Sequence record: PV287714.1
Source of the DNA: Escherichia phage HMD-9
Length of the DNA: 64,000 bases
Reading direction: 5' to 3' (one strand)
Position 1 is the first letter of the stretch. Every line of letters starts with the position of its first letter. Positions 1 through 110 of this stretch are shown piece by piece. A model generated the notes under the pieces. The model was not told the origin of the DNA. It saw only the letters and a list, made by a program, of their open reading frames with translations, and ran no database searches. The translations under genes were made by a program, and so were the position numbers.

Positions 1-110
1 CGTGCTAATAGACTTTCGGCTTCAACCAAAGCTGCACCTAGCTTAGTTGCAAATGTGTCAGTAGCTTCGTTAAGAATAGATTCTGATAAAAATTCACTAT
101 ATGTTTTCAT
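1..110 (-). CDS. internal-protein-like protein with capsid-targeting sequence (5' part only; continues beyond window start)
   Basis: ATG at 110-108 overlaps lysozyme stop (ATGA). Translation [36 protein letters not shown].. fits the T4 internal-protein CTS pattern MKT(Y/F)xEF(L/I)xE; position matches ipIII/ipII downstream of e. Confidence 0.5.

Follow-up and report, generated by a model that had tools for sequence, protein, structure and literature searches.

The 64,000-nucleotide stretch of Escherichia phage HMD-9 DNA analysed here (sequence record PV287714.1; the window) breaks off, on its minus strand, within a short frame whose start overlaps the stop codon of the lysozyme gene e. The locus raises the questions of which protein this truncated frame encodes, whether it belongs to the internal head proteins and what such a protein would do for the phage. 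A sequence-only reading had assigned the frame to ipIII/ipII.

A gene whose start overlaps the stop codon of e

The junction consists of three overlapping features.

1..110, minus strand: start (36 codons) of an Ip5-like gene of 93 codons for an internal head protein, RB69ORF127c type (translation, relatives and phrog_3499)
107..110, minus strand: ATGA start/stop overlap between this gene (ORF93) and e (direct reading)
107..595, minus strand: lysozyme gene e, 162 aa, two residues fewer than in T4 e (ORF list; 94% identity to T4 e over residues 1-161)

Read directly, the minus-strand junction is GGAAAGCGTATATATGAAAACATATAGT. The e ORF (595..107, minus strand) ends in K-A-Y-I-TGA, and the ATG of ORF93 (110..108, minus strand) shares its TG with that stop codon (TGA, 109..107). 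Translation of 110..1 yields 36 codons and stays open to the window edge, which leaves 57 codons beyond it. Direct reading thus bears out the earlier description of a CTS-bearing ORF whose ATG overlaps the e stop as ATGA and which continues past the window. Four-nucleotide ATGA overlaps occur at no fewer than 10 other junctions of the same genome, so the overlap in itself is ordinary gene packing.

An early stop just past the edge, which had been named as a possible objection, is not found: in the three relative records examined (ON871820, NC_025437 and NC_019503, the set of ON871820, Shf125875 and ime09), the frame spans 282 nt, encodes 93 aa and ends in KYISGASEK*. The codons past the edge are inferred from these relatives, the closest genome overall being only ~95% identical over 12 kb. 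Within the window, positions 1-110 equal ON871820 at every position, and this record is also the best match to the e region (99.4%). The same 110 nt are matched in 238 phage records, ~180 of them identical. The window as a whole is Tequatrovirus-like, with gp20, gp21, gp68 and 57B each >99% identical to their T4 counterparts.

A tblastn search with the leader-less part recovered, at ≥90% identity, 238 records, as many as carry the 5′ end. ORF93 is intact in ~237 of the 238, across three genera; the sole disrupted copy is that of BYEP02 (OR757454), where the homologue is split in two and a 49-aa fragment is annotated. Of the 681 records that carry e, only about 238, roughly one in three, have the gene. 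Comparison of ON871820 with VR25 (84% nt identity) gives a dN/dS of 0.10 in frame versus 0.96 and 2.5 in the other two frames, and purifying selection on ORF93 is established on this evidence from sequence comparison. It is hardly credible that ORF93 is a chance or decaying frame rather than a functional gene. Such a reading could point to the failure of ORF93 to match any Pfam family and to the broken copy in BYEP02, but it is effectively refuted by the dN/dS values (0.10 against about 1-2.5 out of frame), and it sits equally badly with the intact copies in three genera, with the existence of a paralogue family 47% identical and with a leader motif that exceeds chance expectation more than 100-fold. 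This motif has four six-frame matches in the window against a mean of 0.035 and a maximum of 1 in 200 Markov resamples, and all four lie at the N-termini of minus-strand ORFs (starts at 110, 4860, 8011 and 8344).

Family membership, leader and mature protein

The assignment to ipIII/ipII survives in part. The frame is an internal-protein-type ORF with a CTS, in the position that ipIII occupies after e in T4, but its mature part is not that of IPIII (183 residues) or IPII (90 residues). When compared by BLASTP with T4 IPIII (193 aa) and IPII (100 aa), taken from NC_000866, it aligns through leader residues 1-11 only, so the predicted homology fails outside the leader. With IPIII the alignment is confined to these residues (versus MKTYQEFIAEA), and with IPII the leader is accompanied only by an insignificant 11-residue patch. 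Removal of the first 19 residues abolishes all matches to IPI, IPII and IPIII, whereas the same leader-stripped query is 54-57% identical to Ip5 of RB14, with a 54% match at E 6e-18. True IPIII and IPII are encoded elsewhere in the relatives: an IPIII 95% identical to that of T4 in ON871820, an IPII 96% identical to that of T4 in Shf125875 and an Ip4 in ime09 are all separate genes located after denV.

Several independent namings converge on Ip5. In PHROGs, ORF93 matches the whole profile of phrog_3499, "internal head protein", at E 1.2e-46, while the IPIII orthologue falls in a separate family, phrog_5341. The body of the protein is 47-54% identical to Ip5 of T2, RB14 and wV7, and ~258 further records (T2, RB14, AR1, PST, wV7 and others) carry a 47-49% identical protein annotated as Ip5/ipV internal head protein. 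The UniRef family names read "Ip5 internal head protein", the RefSeq name is "internal head protein" with the note RB69ORF127c, and the RB14 annotation itself ties "Ip5" to "RB69ORF127c". A profile search retrieves only Ip5-named and ORF93-type clusters, and the family is narrow: a set of 5.8 billion proteins contains 12 clusters of it, and T-even-type phages are the source of them all. Gene identity and family membership are established by these comparisons. The gene itself is already known, being present hundreds of times in GenBank/RefSeq as "internal head protein", and the Ip5 family has already been named publicly (the RB70 Ip5 entry in UniRef, the T2 and RB14 annotations). A literature search for the Ip5 internal head protein returned nothing, the only name match for "ORF127c" being RB43ORF127c, an unrelated methylase, and PADLOC gave no match.

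The prototype Ip5 lies at the ipI locus, between 57B and ipI/ip7, while the window gene follows e; the latter is therefore an e-slot paralogue, and a position at the ipI locus is not essential for membership of the Ip5 family. The place directly after e is itself a slot of internal-protein genes in T4, Moon, Q7622, VR25 and RB69-type phages. Beyond ORF93, the gene order varies between relatives, with Ip4 in ime09, an 86-aa Ip followed by IPIII in ON871820 and an 86-aa Ip followed by IPII in Shf125875. In ON871820, denV is reduced to a short 141-nt remnant annotated "endonuclease" (4895..5035 of that record); ime09 and Shf125875 keep the full gene.

The leader and the enzyme expected to act on it are located as follows.

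66..110, minus strand: capsid-targeting leader/propeptide, codons 1-15, with SILNE at its end (Y4, F7, L8, E10; L/I-X-E rule)
between 81 and 80, minus strand: candidate gp21 site after E10 (L-S-E; L/I-X-E rule)
between 66 and 65, minus strand: candidate gp21 site after E15 (L-N-E; L/I-X-E rule)
37290..37925, plus strand: prohead protease gene 21 (tblastn with T4 gp21, 99.5% identity over 212/212 residues)

Incorporation of T4 IPIII into the head required no more than its first 10 residues, and the CTS alone carried fused foreign proteins into the head (PMC9026906). Positions 4 and 7 of this CTS serve targeting, positions 8 and 10 serve processing, and gp21 cuts after L/I-X-E (PMC9026906). ORF93 has the same determinants, Y4, F7, L8 and E10, including both targeting residues. 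An L/I-X-E ending a propeptide of 10-19 residues is provided twice, by L8-S-E10 and by L13-N-E15. E15, and with it the (L/I)-x-E site that it ends, is invariant in seven aligned full-length genomic members, while E10 is replaced by V in VR25 and by K in T2/RB14. Elsewhere in the wider cluster alignment, the divergent P0010 has no aligned E15 but carries L-A-E ending at residue 10, and a member with a 5-residue leader deletion retains I-T-E. Because E15 is kept across members, the conserved cut would fall after residue 15, with E10 as an extra candidate site in the window lineage. The cut context of T4 IPI, STITE|A (I-T-E|A), resembles the L-N-E|A of ORF93. The conservation of these motifs and the presence of the protease are established: the window holds a T4-type protease and scaffolding core, gp21 with gp20, gp67 and gp68 adjacent, and gp21 is the enzyme expected to remove the ORF93 leader.

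The predicted mature product has 78-83 aa, a mass of 8.6-9.2 kDa and a pI of 6.3-8.1, with 14 K+R versus 13-14 D+E. It is hence near neutral and less basic than the T4 internal proteins (pI 9.0-9.65). AlphaFold2, run on a 9-sequence alignment, predicts a small all-helical bundle (pLDDT 78.6; helices 4-44, 47-50, 56-66 and 69-87). Searched against PDB and BFVD, the model found only the family's own VR26 member and no informative neighbour; the best fold resemblance in PDB is a generic three-helix bundle, SCIN-D, at E 6, and a PDB sequence profile gave only weak matches, to designed helical bundles. The modelled fold is a generic small helical bundle and gives no functional inference. No reports of virion proteomics or N-terminal sequencing for the Ip5-like family were found in the literature.

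The same window carries further leader-bearing genes. The e.x region, upstream of the tRNA cluster, contains a 187-aa ORF (4297..4860, minus strand) whose leader, MKTYAEFLTE|A, is of textbook form. Its family is phrog_2280, for which the label is "unknown function" and not internal protein; the ORF may represent a third locus, with an internal protein that has escaped recognition. The ipI slot beside 57B (8426..8881) has no T4-type ipI. Two genes with the leader MKTFKEFINE fill it instead (7703..8011 and 8072..8344, minus strand), one for a T2-type Ip7 of phrog_2667 (98.8% identity) and one for an "internal head protein" of 90 aa from phrog_7673. The tRNA cluster (5586..6674, minus strand) comprises 11 predicted tRNAs versus 8 in T4. 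One of the predictions, called as "tRNA-Lys" (5586..5679), is unusually long at 94 nt and stands away from the others.

The slot downstream of e and its expression

The ATGA overlap of the window is one of two arrangements. Five other genera are counted in which an ORF starting MKTYNEF overlaps e by 14 nt, four of them named: in VR25 (Gaprivervirus), Moon (Moonvirus), Q7622 (Kanagawavirus) and IME281 (Dhakavirus), the post-e gene starts 14 nt inside e, whose end reads TGTWK(A/V)YENL*. The bodies of the post-e ORFs are mutually unrelated (an Ip5-like protein, an IPIII-like protein 65% identical to that of T4, a 91-aa protein and a 132-aa protein). T4 is colinear, the last 14 nt of its e, ATAAAAATCTATAA, matching ATGAAAACCTATAA of VR25 at 12 of 14 positions; the ATG has disappeared there, and 87 nt separate e from ipIII, which has a ribosome-binding site of its own. 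Compared with VR25, Moon, Q7622 and IME281, where the overlap is 14 nt, the window lineage has four extra bases, a (TA)2 expansion. This 4-nt insertion accounts for the ATGA overlap and shifts e into a TGA, giving 162 aa instead of 164. The 14-nt stretch that in several Tevenvirinae genera serves both as the start of the post-e gene and as the last e codons was located in records L005 (2471..2484), L011 (1235..1248), L012 (1231..1244) and L013 (1235..1248), and, without the ATG, in L003 (T4; 3504..3517).

Downstream of ORF93, the sequence after the stop, GTTTACTTCCTCC ... TACTATACAT, has its homologue in T4 directly 3′ of e, so that ORF93 forms a cleanly bounded cassette relative to T4. A cassette structure is established by these boundaries, and on comparison of the sequences the position after e is a cassette slot. 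Within the downstream element, GTTTAC...TACTATACAT is treated as a putative promoter only by homology to the sequence after e in T4; a consensus scanner made no promoter call for it (8/12 hexamer matches by the author's count).

The exchanged unit appears to extend into e itself.

107..203, minus strand: 3′ segment of e travelling with the ORF93 cassette as a mosaic module (mismatch jump versus T4 e)

Mismatches to T4 e rise from 5% over e nt 1-392 to 26% over nt 393-477, the jump at e nt 393 corresponding to about window position 203. The last ~100 nt of e are foreign relative to T4 and 97-100% identical to a Mosigvirus, the protein ending in AYI* instead of YKNL*. When ON871820 (Tequatrovirus) is compared with Shf125875 (Mosigvirus), the 3′ segment of e, ORF93 and ~35 nt downstream are 93-100% identical versus 60-85% for the rest of e, which points to a recent exchange of this module between genera. 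Across the junction, ~234 records share a stretch of 80 nt at 95% identity or more. Internal-protein cassettes may be swapped by way of this junction, which has the look of a conserved adaptor.

An arrangement of this kind also allows the leader to be seen as a recombination scar, the protein staying unpackaged in the cytoplasm and acting, for example, in lysis control with lysozyme. ORF93 is tightly linked to e and probably co-translated with it, the leader DNA is common to unrelated genes at this junction and could persist for recombinational or e-coding reasons, and in other genera its first 14 nt double as codons for the C-terminal end of e. Conservation nonetheless reaches past the e-shared region, to F7, the L/I-x-E motif and E15; the paralogous Ip5 has the same leader type at the ipI locus, far from e; and the translation contains no hydrophobic, membrane-like stretch, the model being all helical. 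A scar of this sort is judged very improbable.

Three features bear on the expression of the slot.

609..629, minus strand: two T4 late-promoter cores TATAAATA, at 629..622 and 616..609, upstream of e (pattern search)
590..632, minus strand: hairpin sequestering the e ribosome-binding site (dG -16.2 kcal/mol, z -4.6, 0/200 shuffles as stable)
118..123, minus strand: GGAAAG within e, a weak Shine-Dalgarno-like sequence whose GGA core precedes the ORF93 ATG by 10 nt

The late promoters and the e hairpin are both conserved in the window. McPheeters et al. are said to have found in 1986 that, in T4 transcripts initiated further upstream, this hairpin hides the ribosome-binding site of e. The two late promoters are the likely source of an e-ORF93 late mRNA. 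Between e and ORF93 there is too little space for a promoter, and a scan of a collinear relative detected no plus-strand terminator and no usable promoter in this interval. A promoter-like site at the junction, TTGGAA-18-TATAGT, was rejected as a driver of ORF93, its -10 falling inside the first codons of the ORF.

The duplex formed with the 16S 3′ end amounts to -4.3 kcal/mol for the ORF93 GGAAAG versus -11.5 for e, and the junction RNA is unstructured (z +1.0). With a weak Shine-Dalgarno sequence at 10 nt and unstructured RNA around it, termination-reinitiation at the AUGA is therefore the most economical reading, and the anatomy makes translational coupling of ORF93 to e plausible. Independent initiation is possible too, other genera starting the same gene with a 14-nt overlap and a better-spaced Shine-Dalgarno sequence (~6 nt in the 14-nt-overlap lineages).

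Proposed role and relation to known systems

The explanation preferred here, and held with considerable confidence, is that the frame is the 5′ end of a 93-codon Ip5-family gene whose product would be packaged, trimmed and injected to act against host defence. The anatomy of the locus suggests that ORF93, having no promoter of its own, would be transcribed with e, late, from the two TATAAATA promoters, and that ribosomes ending e at the UGA would restart at the overlapping AUG, aided by the weak GGAAAG, so that ORF93 synthesis would follow that of lysozyme, late, when proheads are built. Motifs and family precedent further suggest that the leader would direct the protein into the gp22 scaffolding core, where gp21 would remove it after L-N-E15 and possibly also after L-S-E10. 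A 78-83-residue, ~9 kDa, all-helical protein would be left in the head and would, by the same precedent, be injected with the DNA. By analogy with T4 Ip1, Ip2 and Ip3, a host defence may then be neutralised.

Each of T4 Ip1, Ip2 and Ip3 is an inhibitor of a different GmrSD type IV restriction enzyme, and the proteins of both Ip loci have been proposed to all target GmrSD variants (Silas et al. 2025, PMC12373910). More generally, the T-even internal proteins were described as a diverse defence-countering set with the CTS as their sole common part (PMC3012670). Ip4-10 showed no reproducible inhibition of further GmrSD systems, a set that presumably includes the prototype Ip5, the e-slot variant not being specified (PMC12373910). 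Within the overall explanation, a role of the ORF93 protein as an injected anti-defence factor is, by this analogy, rather probable.

The main rival grants that the protein is packaged and gives it a structural or physical role, in core assembly, DNA packing or charge balance, in place of an anti-defence one. IPIII mutants assemble heads more slowly and form more polyheads, internal proteins co-purify with gp22 (PMC9026906) and their lysines contact DNA phosphates (PMC3012670), and a structural role would agree with the lack of any GmrSD target found for Ip4-10 (PMC12373910). However, a near-neutral mature protein (pI 6.3-8.1) is poorly suited to charge neutralisation, the presence of the gene in 238 of 681 e-carrying records and its swapping between genera follow the pattern of an accessory arms-race gene, and specific anti-restriction activity has emerged for every one of the three T4 Ips (PMC12373910). 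A purely structural role is hence regarded as unlikely.

If ORF93 is instead an injected anti-defence factor, as preferred here, its target may lie elsewhere. It is tentatively suggested, with more doubt than conviction, that the e-slot Ip5-like protein inhibits a defence outside the GmrSD variants tested, and that the e 3′ end and the leader 5′ end together act as a universal recombination adaptor for inhibitor swaps in Tevenvirinae. ORF93 alone carries little weight, and its value is that of a pointer to the orphan Ips. Given its near identity in three phage genera and its place in an exchangeable slot, an Ip5-type protein of this sort is a sensible starting point for finding a new defence/counter-defence pair.

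Among known proteins, the RB69ORF127c type (YP_007004504 of ime09, YP_009100663 of Shf125875 and "ip5" of VR25) is the same gene in the same post-e position, with 98-100% identity over 93 aa in Tequatrovirus and Mosigvirus and 88-90% in Gaprivervirus VR25. The VR25 copy differs in its 14-nt overlap and in having no E10, and otherwise in nothing of substance. Ip5 of T2/T6/RB14/RB70 (phrog_3499) is of similar size and has a homologous body (47-54%), sharing KLGxALxEAExL...RIxEL...EIAKNGSxMKxRLE and the same leader type with (I/L)-x-E15. It differs from ORF93 in lying at the ipI locus beside 57B, with its own intergenic region and no overlap with e, and in having an IPI-like leader, MKTFKEFATKTTITE, a C-terminus 6-8 residues shorter and a pI of 9.2.

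T4 IPIII and IPII resemble ORF93 in the leader (7/11 identical, 10/11 similar) and in their position downstream of e; the IPIII homologue of phage Moon has exactly the same overlap with e as the ORF93-type gene of VR25. They are unlike ORF93 in showing no detectable similarity in the mature part, in falling into other PHROGs and in length (193 and 100 aa). Ip2 and Ip3 have known GmrSD targets, whereas no such target is assigned to the ORF93 protein. T4 IPI, whose mature form IPI* is a GmrSD inhibitor, is likewise a small leader-bearing, injected protein of ~8-9 kDa once mature, mature size and injection being predicted in the case of ORF93. In contrast, its sequence is unrelated, and IPI* has two beta sheets flanked by helices (PMC3012670), as opposed to the all-helical model of ORF93.
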